Assembly: GCA_000004695.1 (NCBI GenBank)
Contig: CM000152.2
Coordinates: 1,536,001 to 1,600,000, forward strand
Origin: Dictyostelium discoideum
Taxonomy: Eukaryota
Length of the DNA: 64,000 nt
Direction: 5' to 3'
Within the stretch, counting starts at the first letter, position 1; every line of letters begins with the position of its first letter. The notes under the pieces are model-generated. The model did not search any database. It had not been told where the DNA came from and saw nothing but the letters and a program-made list of their open reading frames with translations. Of the stretch, positions 2,571 through 38,030 are shown one piece after another. The translations under genes and the position numbers were made by a program.

Positions 2571-2870
2571 ATGCAATCTTCAAATCCATTTGAAAATAGT
2601 GGTAGTTCTGGTGGTGGAGAAGGGAGTGAAGATACTAAAGATGATTTTGTACTATTAAAAAAAGATGAAGACCCAACAATTCAAAGTACTTTAATAAAAA
2701 GATTGGATTCAATTCAACAACAGGATCATTTAAAAAAGAAACAAGATTTAGATACAAAAAGTAATGAAAGTAGTTCAATATGTGGTGCTTCTCCATTTGA
2801 AGTTTCAAAAGAGGATCATAGTAATTTAAAATCTGCAAATGATTTAAAACAAAAAGAAAATCAAAAATTA

Positions 2871-2963
<93 letters not shown>

Positions 2964-3094
2964 GAACAACAACAAGAACAAGAACAATTTGGACAACAAT
3001 CAACCAATGAAACAATATCTTTACCATTTTCAAATAATAATGAATCAATTGTAAATTTAAATAATCAACAACAACAATCAACAGAAATAATAAA

Positions 3095-3126
<32 letters not shown>

Positions 3127-3599
3127 ACCAATTTGTATCAGTTCCATTTAGTCCACCATTAAAACCATTTTCATTAGAAAAAATAGAATCAAATTCAGAG
3201 TTACCATTTATTAGACCAGATAATTATGAAAGTACAAATTATCCTCATAATACAACAACCAACTCAAATAGTGGTATTTTAAATCCAGGAATTGATAGAG
3301 CATACTATAATATGAATTCAAGGATTGGTAGTAACATTCCATTAGATGATGATAATGCAAATCCATTCGCTCGTATTACCACAGCTGTTGACCCAGAAGT
3401 CGAAGTTAACAATGATGATGATGAAGCTGGTCCAATGGTTAATATAAATATCAATCCTGGTACTTTTGCAGAACCAAACGGTGCAGAAGTTCCTGTAGTA
3501 ACAAGAAGAAGAAGAACCGATGATAAAATAGGTGTCATTATAATGTGTACTATAATTATAATTATTATTGGTGGTTGTATTGCATTTTTATTCATTTAA
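2571..3599 (+). CDS. Hypothetical protein (342 aa) with a long poly-Q tract, six NPF/xPF motifs and a C-terminal hydrophobic transmembrane anchor.
   Basis: Single uninterrupted ORF from the track. It starts MQSSNPFENSGSSGGGEG. The (CAA)n run at 2875..2972 encodes about 32 Q. The last 23 residues (IGVIIMCTIIIIIIGGCIAFLFI) are a predicted TM segment directly before the stop, so it is tail-anchored-like. Repeated NPF, SPF, LPF and VPF tripeptides are present. Confidence 0.6.
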
Positions 3600-3736
3600 A
3601 TGTAATTTAAAAAAAAAAAAAAAAAAAAAACAAATTTAAAAATAAAAATTAAAAATAAAATAATAATTTCTTTTAAAGTAAAAAAAAAATAATAATACAA
3701 TAAGAATTTTTATTTAAAAATTTTTATTTTATTTAT

Positions 3737-4123
3737 TTATTTTTTAATTGCATGAAGTAAATAATTAACATTTAAATCATTTGTAAAATCCCATTCACAA
3801 GTTAATGGATTATAAACTAAACCTTTAAGATCAGTGATTTGACAATTATTTGAATCAAAATAAGATTCTAAATCCTTTGGTTTTATAAATTGATCCCAAT
3901 GATGTGTTCCAACTGGTACCATTCTAAAAATATATTCAGCACCTAAAATCGCAGAGATATATGATAAAAATGTTTTATTAATTGTTGATATAAATATACT
4001 ACCACCTGGTTTAACTATTTTACTTAAATAATCTATAAATTGTTTTGGATTATCAACATGTTCAATCACTTCTAATGAACAAACTGCATCAAATTGTTGA
4101 TCATTTTCAATATTATAAAAATT

Positions 4124-32180: not shown

Positions 32181-32281
32181 TAAATAAACTATTGTAGTAT
32201 ACAATTAGTATATTATTTTTATTTATTTATTTTAGGTTTTTTAGTTTTTGTGAATTTAAAATGGAATGTTATTTTAGATTG

Positions 32282-32757
32282 GGTAATTAATAATTAATTG
32301 GTGGTGGAATTGTTGGAATTGGTTCATTTGTGATTATGCTCCATTCTTTTTTAAATTTTTTGATGGTTTAGGACCATTGGGTTTCTTTTTGAGTTTTTGT
32401 GAGTTGTTTTTAAGTGAGTTTTGGTTATAGATAATGTTCTTGAATATTCCAATTAGCTTGTGCCATTTTGATTTTAATATATCATAATCTAGTATTGTGT
32501 TTTTTATTTGATTGTTCCGATTATCAATTGATTGAGTTATATTGATGTCAAATAATGATTTGCATATCCATATCCATATTTGGTGAATAACTAATGAGAT
32601 TATGTTCCAATATGCATGTGTTTTGACTAGATCAAGATTTGTGTTTATATAATTCCAGTAGAATCTGTATTTTTTATTTTGTGCGTTTTCAGCAAAATTA
32701 ATAAACCAATGAACCAATTCCAACAATTACACCACCAATTAATTATTAATTACCTAA
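32282..32757 (-). mobile_element. Second 5-prime-truncated TRE3-like fragment (C-terminal 130 codons of ORF2 plus about 100 nt of 3-prime UTR and a poly(A) tail at 32155..32178), bracketed by a 48-bp inverted repeat.
   Basis: The track ORF at 32334..32726(-) reads ...HQIWIWICKSLFD...KSKWHKLIGIFKNI. This parallels the full-length ORF2 C-terminus ...HNIWIWICNQIYSED...LKKWHKLATLEYI. The left arm 32282..32330 (ggtaattaataattaattggtggtggaattgttggaattggttcattt) is the reverse complement of 32707..32754, matching 46 of 48 nt. Confidence 0.5.
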
Positions 32758-32814
32758 CCTAAAATAACATACCATTTTAATAAACCGAAATTCGTAAAAT
32801 TTTTTTTTTTTACC

Positions 32815-32827: not shown

Positions 32828-32831
32828 TTTT

Positions 32832-32899
<68 letters not shown>

Positions 32900-32997
32900 T
32901 GGATTAACAAGATTGATATATGTCCATCTGTGTTAATACGAGTTTTTATTTAATATTTATTTATAGGCTTATCATTTAAGCTGAAGGGTTATTTTAA

Positions 32998-35900
32998 TCA
33001 TATGAATTGATCAAAAGATATAATATTTGGGAGAGATGATTCTGGAATACAATAGTAATTAGCTGTTGTTTTTCTTAGCTTGATCGTTGAGGTGAGAAGG
33101 ATCTTAGGGTCTTTGAAATTATTATGGTCTTTTGCTGATAAGTTTTTCAGGTCTTTTGCTTTTTTGATGTATTCTAGAGTGGCCAATTTGTGCCATTTCT
33201 TTAGAAGGGAGCTGTATGATAGTGATTCATTTGTTAAAGGATCTTCACTGTATATTTGATTGCAAATCCAAATCCAAATGTTGTGGAGGATAAGGGCCAT
33301 TAGGTTTCTATATGCGAATGATCTGGTTAGATCATAGTCTATTGCTTTATAGTTCCATTCAAAGTATTCTTTGTGGAATCTGTGGTTGGCGTAGTCTGCA
33401 TTCACTTCTTGATCTTTTTTGGCTGTCGGTGATAATTTTGGAGTTATTCTATTAATGAAATTGTTATTTTGCCTAATTCTTGTATGGTGCCAGTTTTTAC
33501 CTTTGCCTGTGGTAATATAGATGAAATTTTTGAGTTTATTTATTTTTATGAATTGTTTTGTTTTCTTGCATGAGAAGAACAGGTGACCGTATGGGTCTTT
33601 GCTCATATCTTCTTTGCAGAGTGGACATTGTTTGTTGTGAAGGTAGTTTATTGGAAGGCATCTGGCATGGAATCTAAACATTGTGTCTTTTGTTTTAGGG
33701 TCTTTTATCTTCAGTATGTTGTTGAAGAGTTGATTATAGCTGTAGCCTCTTAAGTTTAGAGATGATTGGAATTCCGTTTTAGGGATGGTTAAATTTTGGT
33801 CTTGAATTGTGGTATACCATTCTGCCAGTGAAAGTGGTTGTCCATTTTCGTTTTTTATGGATGTGAGATTATTGTTGAAGATTGCTTTTTTTATTCTTAT
33901 TTTGTTCCATTCGTCTAAGTTTTCTTTTAGGTATCTGGATGTGAATTTGTTTTTTTGGATCTGATATTCCCAGCTTTTGTGATGCGATGAGTTTGTTTGT
34001 TTGGTTTCTAGTGCTAGGATGAACTGGTTTATGATCCAAAGTTTCTGCGCCAGTTGTCTCAATTCTATATTCCAAATGTTCCAACCCCCTACTTTTAGTG
34101 GGTATCTTGCTCTTTTGGTTCTCATTAAATTAATAACTTGAAATCCACTAGCATTTTTGTTGTTTGGTGCCGATAAAAACCATTCGACTAATTTATTGAT
34201 TTGGTTTAATTCCTCTTCCTTAAAGTTCTCTACATATGAATAGTAGGTTAATTTAGAGAGTGCGAATGCTTTGAGGATGTTGGTTTTGGTTTTGATTGTT
34301 GAGTCAGTGGTTTTCCATAGTACTAAGGATGATCTTATTGTGTTTAATATTTCTGGCATTTTTCTTGTTATCCCTTTGCCTGTGAAGAAGTATCCCAAGT
34401 ATCTTTCTGGATTTGTAGATATTGGAATTCTTTGGTTGGTATTGTCTGGGTTGCCTATAAGAATTGATGAAGATTTGTCGATGTTTAGTTTTGAGGAAGT
34501 GGCTTTGCAAAATGAATTGAAGTGTTGTAGTACTAATTCAAGTTGTTGAAAGTCTGGGACCATTGAAGCCGAGTCGTCTGCAAAGCTTTGGAATTTCTCT
34601 CTGTGGTTGCTGTTGTTTAGAGGAAGGCCAGTAATTCGGTCATCTTGTAAAATTTTTCTAGCTAAAGCCTCTATTACAAGGACGAACAGGGTGGGTGATA
34701 GTGGATCTCCTTGTTTAACTCCTCTTTTGATCTCAAAGGGTATAGTAGTTCTACCATTAATTTCAATTCTTGCTTCAGATTTGGTGAGTAGATTCATTAT
34801 CAGGTTGATTATATTGGTTGGAATGTTGATGTGTTGTAGTGATCTGAGTATTGAACCGTGTGAGATCGAGTCAAAAGCTTTTTCGAAATCATATAGTGTA
34901 ATTATTCCGTTAATTCTTTTATCATTACAATAGTTGATTAATTCGTTCATTGATATGATATTATCTAGAATGAATCTGCCTGGTACGAAACCTTTTTGAT
35001 TGTGGTTGATCACTTTCGTTAGTATTGGGATTATTCTATTGTTTATTAGTTTTGAGTGGATTTTATATATACAGTTAGCCAGTGTAATTGGTCTTCTGTT
35101 TTTGATTAGTTCGGGGTCTCCCTTTTTAGGTATCGTGATAATGAGGCCTTCTTTGTAATTTTTGCTAATTAGATGAGGATTTCTTAGAGTGTCGTTGAAT
35201 GCTGAGGCCAGTATTGGAGCTAGTTTTTCTTTGTGTGTTATGTAGAATAAGTTTGGAATTCCATCTGGGCCTGGAGATTTGTGTGGGTTCAATTGTTTTA
35301 TTACTTCTAGGATCTCTTGTGATGTGAATTCATTTTCAAGGTTGTCCCATGTTGAGTCCCTGGTCACTGTCCAATTTTCCAACATTTCATAATGAGATGG
35401 TGGGTCATCTTCTTTGTAGTCATAAAGATTTGAGTAATATTTTACGTATTCTTCTTCGATCAATTCCTGTTTGTTGATTGTTCTACCTTGTGCATCTTTT
35501 ACTGCGTTGATGGTGAAATCATTGTGTCTTTTCTTGATTCTCGCGGAGATGTACTTGAGTGAGGTTTCTTCGCAATAGTTGTTCAATTCTTGTTTAAGTT
35601 GTTCTTCTCTTTTTTTAGATTCATTTATTGCTGAAAGGGTTGCGAAGGCTTGGTCTTTAAATTCTGTCTCTAGTAGGGAGATTAGATTTTTGATGTTTGC
35701 CTTATTGTTGTAGTCATTTTGTTTTTGAAATTCTGTGTATAGTTGTTTTATTTTGTTTAGTAAGCTGTTGAGTTGAGAGAAGGAAATAGAGTTATGGTTG
35801 GATGACAGCTCCCTTGAATAATCGTTAAGTAGGAAGTCTATTTTCTTAAGCATTATGCTTGAGAGGATTGAGGATTTTTTTAATCTCCATCTGCGCTTGT

Positions 35901-36702
35901 TCATCTGTATGTTGGGTAGAGTGAAGGTGGTTGATAGGAAGTTGTGATCTGATAGAGGTATGTCATTAATTTTTGGGGGGATTAGGTTCCTTAAGTATAA
36001 TTGGCTGTAGTTGATTATGCTATTGTTAAGGTATATTCTGTCTAGTCTCCTTTCCAAGATTCTTGTGAGGTTATTGTTTGTGTTGTGTATCGTTCTTGAG
36101 AAGGTGGGTCTTTTATTTAGTTGGTCCATATCCATTAGGTTATTTGAAATTCTGATGGCTTCGATTACTGTGGCCATCTCATCTGGGGATTGTGTTGTCA
36201 AGTTGCCTTGGTCATCATTTGATGTGTGATTGTCATTGAAGTCTAAACAGTTGAAGTCGCCTGCTATGATGTCGATGTTTTTATTAGGGTTAGACGTTAG
36301 GTTGTGGTATTGGTTGTTGAAGTGTTTGTTTAGTGTTGAAGCTAGTGTTTTTCTTTTATCAGGTTGGGCCGGGGCGTATATGGCCAAGATTCTCGTTGTG
36401 GTATCTTTTATTAGAATGTCTGATATTATTAGTCTACCTTCTATTATGAATATTGGTGAGAGTTTTATGTTTTGGTTGTTGTGGTTTAGTATTCCTATTC
36501 CGTTGCCTCTGTTGGTTGCGCTAATGATGGAGCCAGGAAATAGCTGGTGTGCTTGTGTTGCGTCGGCGTTGAGTTCATTGACTATGGTTAGTGCCAATGA
36601 GTTTGGGGGGGATTGGGATTTGATAAAGTCTGTTTTGTTTTTGAAGGAGGTGTCAGTGCCCCAACCTCTGACATTCCATTGGTTGATTTTGATTACTACC
36701 AT
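32998..36702 (-). CDS. Retrotransposon ORF2 polyprotein (1234 aa): apurinic-endonuclease-like domain, reverse transcriptase and a C-terminal CCHC zinc knuckle. Apparently intact.
   Basis: Track ORF. The N-terminus MVVIKINQWNVRGWGTDTS... is an EEP/APE nuclease fold start. The central part has RT blocks (…LIKNRRPITLANCIYKIHSKLI…, …GVKQGDPLSPTLFVLVIEAL…, …SFADDSASMV…). The C-terminus has HARCLPINYLHNKQCPLCKEDMSKDPYGHLFFSCKK. Confidence 0.85.
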   Translation of the reverse strand: MVVIKINQWNVRGWGTDTSFKNKTDFIKSQSPPNSLALTIVNELNADATQAHQLFPGSIISATNRGNGIGILNHNNQNIKLSPIFIIEGRLIISDILIKDTTTRILAIYAPAQPDKRKTLASTLNKHFNNQYHNLTSNPNKNIDIIAGDFNCLDFNDNHTSNDDQGNLTTQSPDEMATVIEAIRISNNLMDMDQLNKRPTFSRTIHNTNNNLTRILERRLDRIYLNNSIINYSQLYLRNLIPPKINDIPLSDHNFLSTTFTLPNIQMNKRRWRLKKSSILSSIMLKKIDFLLNDYSRELSSNHNSISFSQLNSLLNKIKQLYTEFQKQNDYNNKANIKNLISLLETEFKDQAFATLSAINESKKREEQLKQELNNYCEETSLKYISARIKKRHNDFTINAVKDAQGRTINKQELIEEEYVKYYSNLYDYKEDDPPSHYEMLENWTVTRDSTWDNLENEFTSQEILEVIKQLNPHKSPGPDGIPNLFYITHKEKLAPILASAFNDTLRNPHLISKNYKEGLIITIPKKGDPELIKNRRPITLANCIYKIHSKLINNRIIPILTKVINHNQKGFVPGRFILDNIISMNELINYCNDKRINGIITLYDFEKAFDSISHGSILRSLQHINIPTNIINLIMNLLTKSEARIEINGRTTIPFEIKRGVKQGDPLSPTLFVLVIEALARKILQDDRITGLPLNNSNHREKFQSFADDSASMVPDFQQLELVLQHFNSFCKATSSKLNIDKSSSILIGNPDNTNQRIPISTNPERYLGYFFTGKGITRKMPEILNTIRSSLVLWKTTDSTIKTKTNILKAFALSKLTYYSYVENFKEEELNQINKLVEWFLSAPNNKNASGFQVINLMRTKRARYPLKVGGWNIWNIELRQLAQKLWIINQFILALETKQTNSSHHKSWEYQIQKNKFTSRYLKENLDEWNKIRIKKAIFNNNLTSIKNENGQPLSLAEWYTTIQDQNLTIPKTEFQSSLNLRGYSYNQLFNNILKIKDPKTKDTMFRFHARCLPINYLHNKQCPLCKEDMSKDPYGHLFFSCKKTKQFIKINKLKNFIYITTGKGKNWHHTRIRQNNNFINRITPKLSPTAKKDQEVNADYANHRFHKEYFEWNYKAIDYDLTRSFAYRNLMALILHNIWIWICNQIYSEDPLTNESLSYSSLLKKWHKLATLEYIKKAKDLKNLSAKDHNNFKDPKILLTSTIKLRKTTANYYCIPESSLPNIISFDQFI

Positions 36703-37955
36703 TATGAGATGATATCGATCTCCTCTTGGGAGTCGTATAGCTGCGGTTTGGATGGTGAAGGGTAGATACTCTCTATGAAGCTCTCAATGATTCCTTTCCT
36801 TTCTTTTTTGACAGGTGTCTTAGGGGTGGATGGGATGTAAGGGTTGCTTCTGTTTATTGTTGGTGAGAGTTGGGTGACCTCGTTGTTTGAGTGGATTTCC
36901 TCGTTCTTGCGTTTATGTGATGGAGGGATGTTTGGTGTCTTCTCTCTGTTTTCCGAGGATGAATGGATGTTAGTGCTCGTTTTGTTGGCATTGTCTTTTT
37001 GGATGGCGTTGGATGTTGTGGTAGTGGTTGTGGTGGGTTTGACAGATTGAGATTCTGCTTGGTTTTTGGGGGGAAGAGGTTGAGAGGACTTTTTTGATTG
37101 GGCTTTTTTCTCTTGGGTTGATTGTTTATCAGACTTATTGTTTGCTGGGTTGTTTGTTTGTTGTTGTGGTTTTGGTTGAGAGGATTTGATTGCTATCCTG
37201 TTTTGGATGTTGGGAGGATCATCTGTCATCTCATCTTCTAATGGTTCTTCCGTGTTGTTTGACTCTACTTTCTTATTTTTCTTTTGAGAGGAGTAGGTTT
37301 TGGTGGCCGTTCTGATGGTAAAGTTGGCGATTTCTGTATTGTGTTGGCCAGATTTCATTTGATCGCCTATTTTGCATTCTATTAGACCGAATACTAGGAG
37401 GTGGTCGGTGGAGTATGTAGTATGGTATATTGCATAGGGTATTTCTTCTGCAAAGGCAGTTTTGATGAGGGCGTCCACTATTCCTGCCTTTTCTCTTGGA
37501 ATTCTTACTCTTCCTGTGAGGACGTGGTAGTCTCTACTGGAGGTGATGAAGGTTCCCAATTTGCTTCTATCTCTAATGATATTTAGGAGAGATTGTTCGT
37601 TTTTAATCATCAGGTGTATCATTTTTCTAGTTCCTTTGCCTATGTATATCTTGTCGATTGGGATATCGTAGTTTGAGAGTGTTTTTCTCATTTCTTCTAA
37701 CCCCATGAGATCCATTTTGGGGAATTCGAGTGTAATTGGGTAGAATCCGTTGTTTTTCTCGTAGGTTGAGAGCGCAGTCATGTTCAATATGGTCTCGCAG
37801 TATTTGGAGATGTCTTTGAGGCCTATTGATAATTTGGGGTAGGTCTCCTTTATCTCTGCTGTTTTTGTGGAGAATTCCTTAATGAAGTTCTCTGATGCCT
37901 CGTCCATATGGGTGGAGGGGTTGGCCATTTTAGCCGCGTCTGCGTAGGAATTCAT
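36702..37955 (-). CDS. Retrotransposon ORF1 protein (417 aa), with a basic S/T/Q/K-rich C-terminal half (nucleic-acid-binding-like).
   Basis: Track ORF directly upstream of ORF2 and overlapping it by 1 nt. There is no stop or frameshift. The C-terminal half is lysine/proline/threonine-rich, as in ORF1 proteins of TRE elements. Confidence 0.8.
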   Translation of the reverse strand: MNSYADAAKMANPSTHMDEASENFIKEFSTKTAEIKETYPKLSIGLKDISKYCETILNMTALSTYEKNNGFYPITLEFPKMDLMGLEEMRKTLSNYDIPIDKIYIGKGTRKMIHLMIKNEQSLLNIIRDRSKLGTFITSSRDYHVLTGRVRIPREKAGIVDALIKTAFAEEIPYAIYHTTYSTDHLLVFGLIECKIGDQMKSGQHNTEIANFTIRTATKTYSSQKKNKKVESNNTEEPLEDEMTDDPPNIQNRIAIKSSQPKPQQQTNNPANNKSDKQSTQEKKAQSKKSSQPLPPKNQAESQSVKPTTTTTTTSNAIQKDNANKTSTNIHSSSENREKTPNIPPSHKRKNEEIHSNNEVTQLSPTINRSNPYIPSTPKTPVKKERKGIIESFIESIYPSPSKPQLYDSQEEIDIIS

Positions 37956-38030
37956 CTCGATGGGATTCCTTTGAATCGGCGATTTGGTAAGTTAGATCTG
38001 TAGATCGTGGTGGATTGGTGATTTTTTTCG

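Follow-up and report, generated by a model that had tools for sequence, protein, structure and literature searches.

A nested inverted duplication within a 5′-truncated TRE3-type insertion of Dictyostelium discoideum, and its possible origin in one aberrant reverse transcription event

Introduction

Target-primed reverse transcription (TPRT) does not ordinarily yield terminal inverted repeats. How, then, did a short fragment of a non-LTR retrotransposon in Dictyostelium discoideum come to carry two near-perfect inverted arms? The locus lies in a stretch of 64,000 nucleotides, all of which was analysed here and which we refer to as the window. The initial annotation of the locus remarked on the conflict with ordinary TPRT, and we agree. 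It proposed three possible explanations: a template switch or snap-back during reverse transcription, a short inversion-duplication after integration, or capture of the fragment by a foldback-type rearrangement. Here we describe the repeat, the insertion that contains it, its junctions and its age, and weigh these and other explanations.

Results

Size and uniqueness of the inverted repeat

The core arms (32256-32328 and 32708-32780) are complementary at 69 of 73 positions, with mismatches at 32265, 32278, 32281 and 32307. The longest extension recovered, by a repeat finder and by blastn, is 76 nt at 93% (71/76) with a 373 nt spacer. The initial annotation placed the arms at 32282-32329 and 32707-32754, and a recount confirms its figure of 46 complementary positions in 48, but the length of 48 is an underestimate as the repeat continues outward to 73-76 nt. 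A 31-nt arm core, searched with up to 3 mismatches, matched the two arms and nothing else, and no match was found in 100 dinucleotide-preserving shuffles.

The G+C content of the window is 21.8%, and its protein matches point to D. discoideum. An unfiltered window-wide scan for inverted repeats was dominated by (ATT)n arrays, and a dust-filtered self-BLAST was used in its place. Once low complexity was filtered, no other inverted repeat of at least 40 nt was identified in the 64 kb. BLAST of the fragment against the window returned no further copy, the only matches being poly(A)/poly(T) noise. When folded, the transcript-sense strand forms a stem of 73 bp that closes a loop of 379 nt (z = -12 relative to shuffles).

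The locus is also present in the assembly GCA_054883475.1 (locus L001, in CM142509.1, a 6.4-Mb chromosome-scale record), where 6585 bp, both arms included, are 100% identical to the window. The full-length element beside the unit differs between the window and L001 at 21 of 5948 positions, and thus GCA_054883475.1 is a sequence record separate from that of the window. These differences (32828-38030 versus L001 1-5948, 0.35%, with the adjacent 6.6 kb identical) could reflect a strain difference, gene conversion among copies, or a consensus-type assembly error. In a search of Logan and of other-strain assemblies, no contigs encoding the protein P0003 or the junction-spanning 130-aa open reading frame of the window were found.

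Anatomy of the insertion

The unit is a single 620-bp minus-strand insertion downstream of a tRNA-Cys gene (Table 1). Its parts, in order, are a target-site duplication (TSD, GGTTTATTAAAA), a 67-73-nt antisense piece, the 10-mer GGTTTATTAA, the truncated end of ORF2 with the 3′UTR, A24 and the second TSD copy. One TSD pair encloses both an antisense 5′ segment and a sense, poly(A)-bearing 3′ segment of the same element. The inverted piece, which is antisense relative to the remainder of the insertion, encodes (T)NEPIPTITPPINY and a stop, followed by ~31 nt of 3′UTR, and its unique (non-TSD) portion spans 32708-32774. Its partner, the direct arm, is internal, separated from the 3′ end by 77 nt of UTR and then A24.

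Table 1. Coordinates, in the window, of the parts of the insertion and of neighbouring features
Feature	Position	Strand	Remarks
tRNA-Cys(GCA) gene	38154-38078	-	
Full-length two-ORF TRE3-type element	32828..38030	-	ORF1 417 aa, ORF2 1234 aa, ~68-nt A-rich tail
5′ (tRNA-proximal) TSD copy GGTTTATTAAAA	32786-32775	-	chance of a 12-mer at a fixed place ~1e-6
Inverted piece	32708..32780	+	AATGAACC...CCATTTTAA, TRE3 sense on the + strand
Third target-site copy GGTTTATTAA	32707-32698	-	exactly between the inverted and direct pieces
Direct 5′-truncated TRE3-type fragment	32701-32179	-	C-terminal ~125 ORF2 codons and 3′UTR
Direct arm, partner of the inverted piece	32328-32256	-	last 13 ORF2 codons, stop, ~31 nt of 3′UTR
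Poly(A) tail (A24) of the fragment	32178-32155	-	
3′ TSD copy GGTTTATTAAAA	32154-32143	-	
Older 5′-truncated ORF2 fragment	32147 down to ~31600	-	~75% identical to the full-length element

The reading frame of the fragment has been lost via deletions of 5, 4 and 1 nt, which produce a local stop at 32336-32334; in the family frame the stop codon lies at 32289-32287, inside the direct arm. This changes how the arms are to be read. The low-coordinate arm had been placed after the stop, within the 3′UTR. That holds for ~31 nt of UTR, but most of the arm is the terminus of ORF2: the ORF2 of four relatives reads through the region (...EWSINTNEPIPTITPPINY and stop), and the local stop was made by deletion. 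Similarly, the residues ELVHW, taken for the first of the fragment's open reading frame, are a read-through of the antisense arm and include no ORF2 sequence. For this locus, automated annotation in the second assembly predicts a protein of 121 aa (P0001, L001 6001-6489), labelled hypothetical and encoded by spliced exons. Exon 1 (MVCYF) begins within the antisense arm, and an intron of the model mends the frameshift so that the family stop is reached. The model is almost certainly an artefact of gene prediction on a dead piece of retroelement.

Relatives of the fragment

Among proteins, the nearest matches are ORF2 fragments of D. discoideum: one, from L001 (the same locus), has 99% identity and five have 67-70%. 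The C-termini of these relatives read ...KKFKKEWSINTNEPIPTITPPINY and stop. Longer versions of these proteins (P0002) include a CX2C...H...C zinc-knuckle region, and in DNA alignment this region has 67% identity to the neighbouring full-length element. The description of the window copy as a 5′-truncated ORF2 fragment agrees with this TRE3-type homology of ORF2 and the 3′ end.

Five related loci (L001-L005), fetched through protein look-ups, were compared. The four further genomic copies (L002-L005) are 97-98% identical to one another and 93.4% identical to the window copy. Their alignment gives the consensus AATGAACC...CCATTTTAA for the arm. Each carries the arm sequence once, and the inverted piece and third target-site copy are absent from all four. 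Thus, the second arm is specific to this locus and is not a family feature. A sequence present once in the family, with no second arm elsewhere, is the arrangement that the initial annotation had itself set against its reading.

Elsewhere in the subfamily the junctions are plain microhomology-type 5′ ends with normal TSDs (TCGTCTCG with GAAAAC in L005, TTAATTTT in L004). Three of the five subfamily copies have their 5′ ends within ~25 nt of each other (window 32701, L004 ~1171-1180, L005 3133), in an A/T-rich patch (tattaattttcattttgcagaaaac) and each with microhomology (TTAA, TTAATTTT and GAAAAC, respectively). The cluster may be a microhomology-mediated hotspot or a sampling effect of the query. 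A tighter clustering of the ends in the window, L004 and L005 was considered and set aside as partly an artefact, because an element with terminal inverted repeats (TIRs) interrupts L004 and the real end is ~25 nt upstream.

That element (L004 1211-3007; GCA_054883475.1, CM142509.1) is ~1.8 kb long, lies within the TRE3 copy and is flanked by a 7-bp duplication, ACGCACA. Its TIRs are long and internally palindromic (1210-1445 versus 2805-3008), with the termini GTCCCATGCCAAAATTAAT...ATTAATTTTGGCATGGGAC, and it resembles a DNA transposon or a MITE-like insertion. At L003 (~3664-3760), a tiny second copy of the last ~20 nt of the element (...aaatagtttattttatatc), with its own poly(A), directly follows the TRE3 poly(A), an example of extreme 5′ truncation and tandem re-targeting. 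The L005 copy adjoins a tRNA-like sequence (~2990-3132, ...ggtcgagtgttcgattctcgtctcg; TSD TCGTCTCG, GAAAAC), and its insertion seems to be at or very near the 3′ end of a putative tRNA-like gene, much closer than the usual 40-150 bp.

Context downstream of the tRNA gene

TRE3 elements integrate ~40-150 bp downstream of tRNA genes, and their insertions are reported in the orientation of the tRNA gene only (PMC5911963). Four stacked insertions follow tRNA-Cys, all on the minus strand and in the orientation of the gene. The full-length element carries RVT_1 and is flanked by a 13-bp TSD, TACACCGCTTTTA, at 38043-38031 and 32827-32815. At the other end, TAAAA of the 3′ TSD copy of the unit doubles as the 5′ end of the older truncated TRE3 fragment. 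The tRNA gene attracted this stack of insertions, and the younger full-length element displaced the fragment away from the gene. With the younger insertions removed by their TSDs, the original target GGTTTATTAAAA would have occupied about +33 to +44 relative to the end of the tRNA, which is at the lower limit of the published distances. The same reconstruction places successive targets in the stack between about +33 and +47.

The fragment belongs to the TRE3 group, as judged from its location and orientation, the homology of its ORF2 to the APE-RT-zinc-finger ORF2 of TREs, its poly(A) and its TSD. The fragment and the adjacent full-length element, at only 67% identity over 170 nt, clearly represent different subfamilies.

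A 28-nt mini insertion, TTACACCGCTTTTAGGT followed by A11, with a 15-bp TSD (ATTTTACGAATTTCG), was also identified on the minus strand (38059-38031 and 32827-32786). The full-length element landed later within it. The sequence CACCGCTTTTAGGT with a poly(A) is also found at the unrelated site L004 1016-1045, by a longer related 3′ end (...ACACCGCTGAAAAG...CACAGGT and A15). The mini insertion appears to be a 3′ terminus with extreme 5′ truncation that has been retro-copied recurrently.

Junctions and microhomology

At the outer junction, the 6 nt TTTTAA are common to the TSD and the element (consensus ...CCATTTTAAattcac), so that TTAAAA (32780-32775) forms both the final 6 nt of the 5′ TSD copy and the outer end of the inverted arm. 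The probability of a 6-nt microhomology here by chance is ~1e-3. The TTAAAA end of the target overhang pairs over 6 nt with the internal UUUUAA priming site of the element RNA.

The inversion junction is more complex. Unambiguous inverted sequence stops at ...GGTTCATT (32708), and the direct element begins at TTAATTTTGC (32701), where relatives carry TTCATTTTGC or TTAATTTGC. The 10-mer GGTTTATTAA, an exact match to the first 10 nt of the TSD, bridges and overlaps both element ends; TTAA (32701-32698) of this third target copy overlaps the start of the direct element sequence. There are four occurrences of GGTTTATTAA in the 64 kb, three of which are the three junctions of the unit, in one orientation. 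For GGTTTA, the non-element part of the 10-mer, the chance of occurrence at a fixed place is 2.7e-4. The antisense strand of the element runs on as ...CATTTGTGTTTAT, and GGTTTAT resembles the antisense GTGTTTAT given a 2-nt gap and one mismatch. The junction 10-mer is formally ambiguous, an exact copy of the target site being more likely than imprecise element sequence. The third TSD copy could be partly coincidental, with TTAA perhaps element sequence.

Age of the arms

With the consensus of L002-L005 as reference, the direct fragment has 19 private substitutions in 511 positions (3.7%), compared to 0.4-1.2% in the other copies. The direct arm has three of its own (32265, 32281, 32307) and the inverted arm one (32758), and none of the four is common to both. 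The difference of one versus three is not significant (P = 0.24-0.6), and thus the substitutions do not distinguish one template from two. The arms diverge from one another by 5.5%, near twice the private divergence of the fragment. Under a Poisson model, the likelihood is maximal if the separation of the arms dates back to the insertion itself, drops 4-fold for a separation halfway through the history of the insert and falls by more than 30-fold (at least 30) for one in its last quarter. This pattern, along with the lack of common private substitutions, indicates that the inverted copy and the insertion are of about the same age. To judge from these counts, the inverted arm was probably not copied late from an already mutated direct arm, and a late inversion-duplication after integration, one of the explanations first proposed, is disfavoured. 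The copy is dead, frameshifted and neutrally decaying, with no evident host consequence, and we imply no function for it.

Discussion

A single aberrant TPRT event

Any explanation of the unit has to fit its anatomy, TSDs and microhomologies, the uniqueness of its second arm and the age of its arms, all of which the data show. We consider it probable that a single aberrant TPRT event, of the L1 twin-priming or cDNA snap-back type, made the unit. A template switch or snap-back was the first of the three options proposed initially and fits best among them, given TSDs that enclose the whole unit, the 6-nt outer microhomology, and arms as old as the insertion. The unit is real, yet it is essentially an ordinary by-product and no new element. 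Because a single locus is available and its end product alone is visible, we infer the mechanism, including the order and nature of the template switches, the polymerase and the template.

In the proposed event, the bottom strand (the plus strand of the window) would be nicked at ...AATAAACC, and cDNA synthesis primed from the poly(A) tail. This first cDNA would end after ~520 nt of the RNA and form the direct piece with its truncated 5′ end. The inverted piece could then arise by either of two routes. By twin priming, the 12-nt 3′ overhang of the top strand (5′-GGTTTATTAAAA-3′, ending ...TTAAAA-3′) would anneal to UUUUAA in the 3′UTR and prime a short antisense cDNA (tggtatg...ggttcatt), which matches the sequence seen. 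The inverted piece is nested in the direct piece, and thus this route needs strand displacement or a second RNA: the first reverse transcriptase may have overrun or displaced the second cDNA, or a second RNA may have been the template. By snap-back, the first cDNA would reach its 5′ end, switch to the overhang at TTAA and copy 10 nt, then fold onto its own GTTTAT (sense ATAAAC, 2-3 nt from the junction) and self-copy 67 nt. It would rejoin the overhang at TTTTAA, complete the TSD and be ligated. This second route would account directly for the third target-site copy and for the AA missing from its end. Both routes agree with the observed strand polarity and with the topology of the unit, which is TSD, antisense X..Z, target copy, sense Y..Z..X..A(n), TSD. 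Each is a variation on behaviour known from L1-clade and R2 enzymes, namely twin priming, template jumping and the attachment of 5′ ends by microhomology (PMC2912911, PMC3159450). Against the single event as canonical twin priming is the position of the inverted piece, ~370 nt inside the direct piece, and the fewer private substitutions on the inverted arm are equally compatible with a separate, later template.

Other explanations

Two successive integrations at the same target would be a different way to obtain a target site that is present three times, and one that we consider unlikely. A TRE3 insertion of the ordinary 5′-truncated kind, flanked by a 10-bp TSD (GGTTTATTAA), would have come first. 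An abortive re-cut of the regenerated tRNA-proximal TSD, with opposite-strand priming at UUUUAA, would have followed, leaving 67 nt of antisense cDNA without poly(A) and the target duplicated anew. TRE3 sites are set by their distance from the tRNA gene, and in the stack one insertion after another used almost the same interval, about +33 to +47, which makes repeated cutting of one site plausible. The inverted arm is also nearer to the family consensus and shares no private substitution with its partner, although a difference of this size is not significant. Against this, TRE3 insertions are reported in the tRNA orientation only (PMC5911963), and the second insert would run antisense to the gene. 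That insert would also lack poly(A), and both of its nick positions must coincide with those of the first event. A separate candidate, an independent TRE3 insertion in the opposite orientation that was later truncated, was rejected: it would break the same orientation rule (PMC5911963), neither the rest of the UTR nor poly(A) comes after the arm, and target-site copies flank the piece.

Microhomology-mediated template switching is a known origin of short inverted duplications, and the junctions of the unit do show microhomologies. A replication template switch or foldback repair after integration, copying 67 nt in inverted orientation via TTTTAA/TTAAAA, is nevertheless improbable. The duplicated 10-12 nt match the TSD boundaries exactly, to which a later replication error would be indifferent, and the three private substitutions of the direct arm are all absent from the inverted arm. 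By its likelihood, such an event could only have been very early, which is hard to tell from integration itself. Less probable still is that the unit is a mobile foldback or MITE-like element, or a selected hairpin-RNA (small-RNA) gene derived from TRE3 sequence. The long stem and its folding score would suit such a unit, and small RNAs are known from Dictyostelium retroelements, TRE3-A included (PMC6161686). However, no other two-armed copy was found in the window or in the five related loci, the repeats are not terminal given the internal position of the direct arm, and the arms decay at the neutral rate of the remaining fragment. The lack of other two-armed copies and the internal arm likewise speak against capture or mobilisation as a foldback, the third of the options first proposed. 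As for an assembly artefact, in which a chimeric join within repeat-rich sequence would have produced one arm, a stack of retroelements with homopolymer runs is indeed hard to assemble. Yet GCA_054883475.1 has the same structure while differing at 21 positions in the adjacent element, and two arms diverged at 4 of 73 positions, with precise TSDs and microhomologies at their flanks, are unlike a chimera. The identical second record makes such a join unlikely, and with the character of the arms and flanks we find it scarcely credible.

Immediately upstream of the imperfect 73-bp hairpin are a Pol III gene and an intact, full-length TRE3 element. It is a far-fetched idea that the hairpin serves as a small-RNA trigger, fed by read-through, against this TRE3 subfamily. 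If the hairpin is diced, an integration accident would have left behind a silencing trigger that is inherited, comparable at one locus to a piRNA/siRNA trap. A more modest reading would make the unit the first documented product of twin priming or snap-back by an amoebozoan L1-clade element. In that case, top-strand priming and serial switching to the overhang would be ancestral to APE-type LINE integration.

Comparison with known systems

Ordinary 5′-truncated TRE3 insertions resemble the unit in location, orientation, poly(A), TSD and ORF2/3′UTR sequence (93%), whereas the extra inverted piece and the third target copy are found in the unit alone. Outside Dictyostelium, the likeness is to the 5′ inversions of L1 that are attributed to twin priming (Ostertag & Kazazian 2001, as described in PMC2837659 and PMC2912911). 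The unit shares with these a non-LTR, L1-clade, APE-type element, TSDs around the whole insertion, a 3′ poly(A) and an antisense 5′ segment. Microhomology is found in about 95% of 5′-inverted L1 insertions (PMC2912911), and microhomology between the end of the target top strand and the internal priming site is common to L1 twin priming and the unit. L1 inversions take their inverted segment from a part of the RNA that lies upstream of the direct one, and their junction shows a small deletion or duplication. In the unit, by contrast, the 73-nt inverted segment is nested and fully duplicated, ~370 nt from the 5′ end of the direct piece, and the target site is repeated once more at the inversion junction. 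Canonical twin priming joins the two cDNAs directly, with microhomology of 0 to a few nt; the junction here can be read either as an exact 10-nt target match or as imprecise element sequence with a TTAA overlap. Given the nested inversion and extra target copy, the unit is a variant of L1 5′ inversion and not a canonical member. A full-text literature search returned no report of twin priming in Dictyostelium TREs, the single match being a primate-oriented pipeline paper.

Dual priming and twin-priming variants with very short segments (Meyer et al. 2010, PMC2837659) also place a short antisense cDNA beside a sense insertion within one TSD pair, by way of a second RNA or of another priming on the overhang of the top strand, and a second RNA would explain the nested duplication of the unit. 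However, dual priming was proposed for second cDNAs primed at poly(A), with 5′ poly(T) stretches as the outcome, whereas the unit would require internal priming at UUUUAA of the 3′UTR.

Template jumping is a further model. R2 reverse transcriptase makes end-to-end jumps between templates (Bibillo & Eickbush 2004, as cited in PMC3159450), and microhomology-driven formation of 5′ ends has been proposed for TREs (PMC3159450). The GAAAAC and TTAATTTT junctions of L005 and L004 are consistent with such TRE 5′ ends. Serial switches at TTAA, ATAAAC and TTTTAA, by template jumping or snap-back, would explain all three junctions and the overhang copied twice. Attachment of 5′ ends by microhomology was reportedly described by Zingler et al. 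in 2005. Template jumping and microhomology attachment are known as biochemical or statistical descriptions, whereas the unit is a genomic product. To our knowledge, no standard category exists for a genomic product in which the target site occurs three times and a stretch of cDNA was copied from the cDNA itself.

If the reading as a single aberrant TPRT event is correct, both nicks, their 12-nt stagger, three microhomology-guided switches and an overhang copied twice are recorded at one locus with unusual completeness. This would be modest evidence that TRE3 shares the 5′-end repertoire of mammalian L1, namely twin priming, template jumping and microhomology joining.
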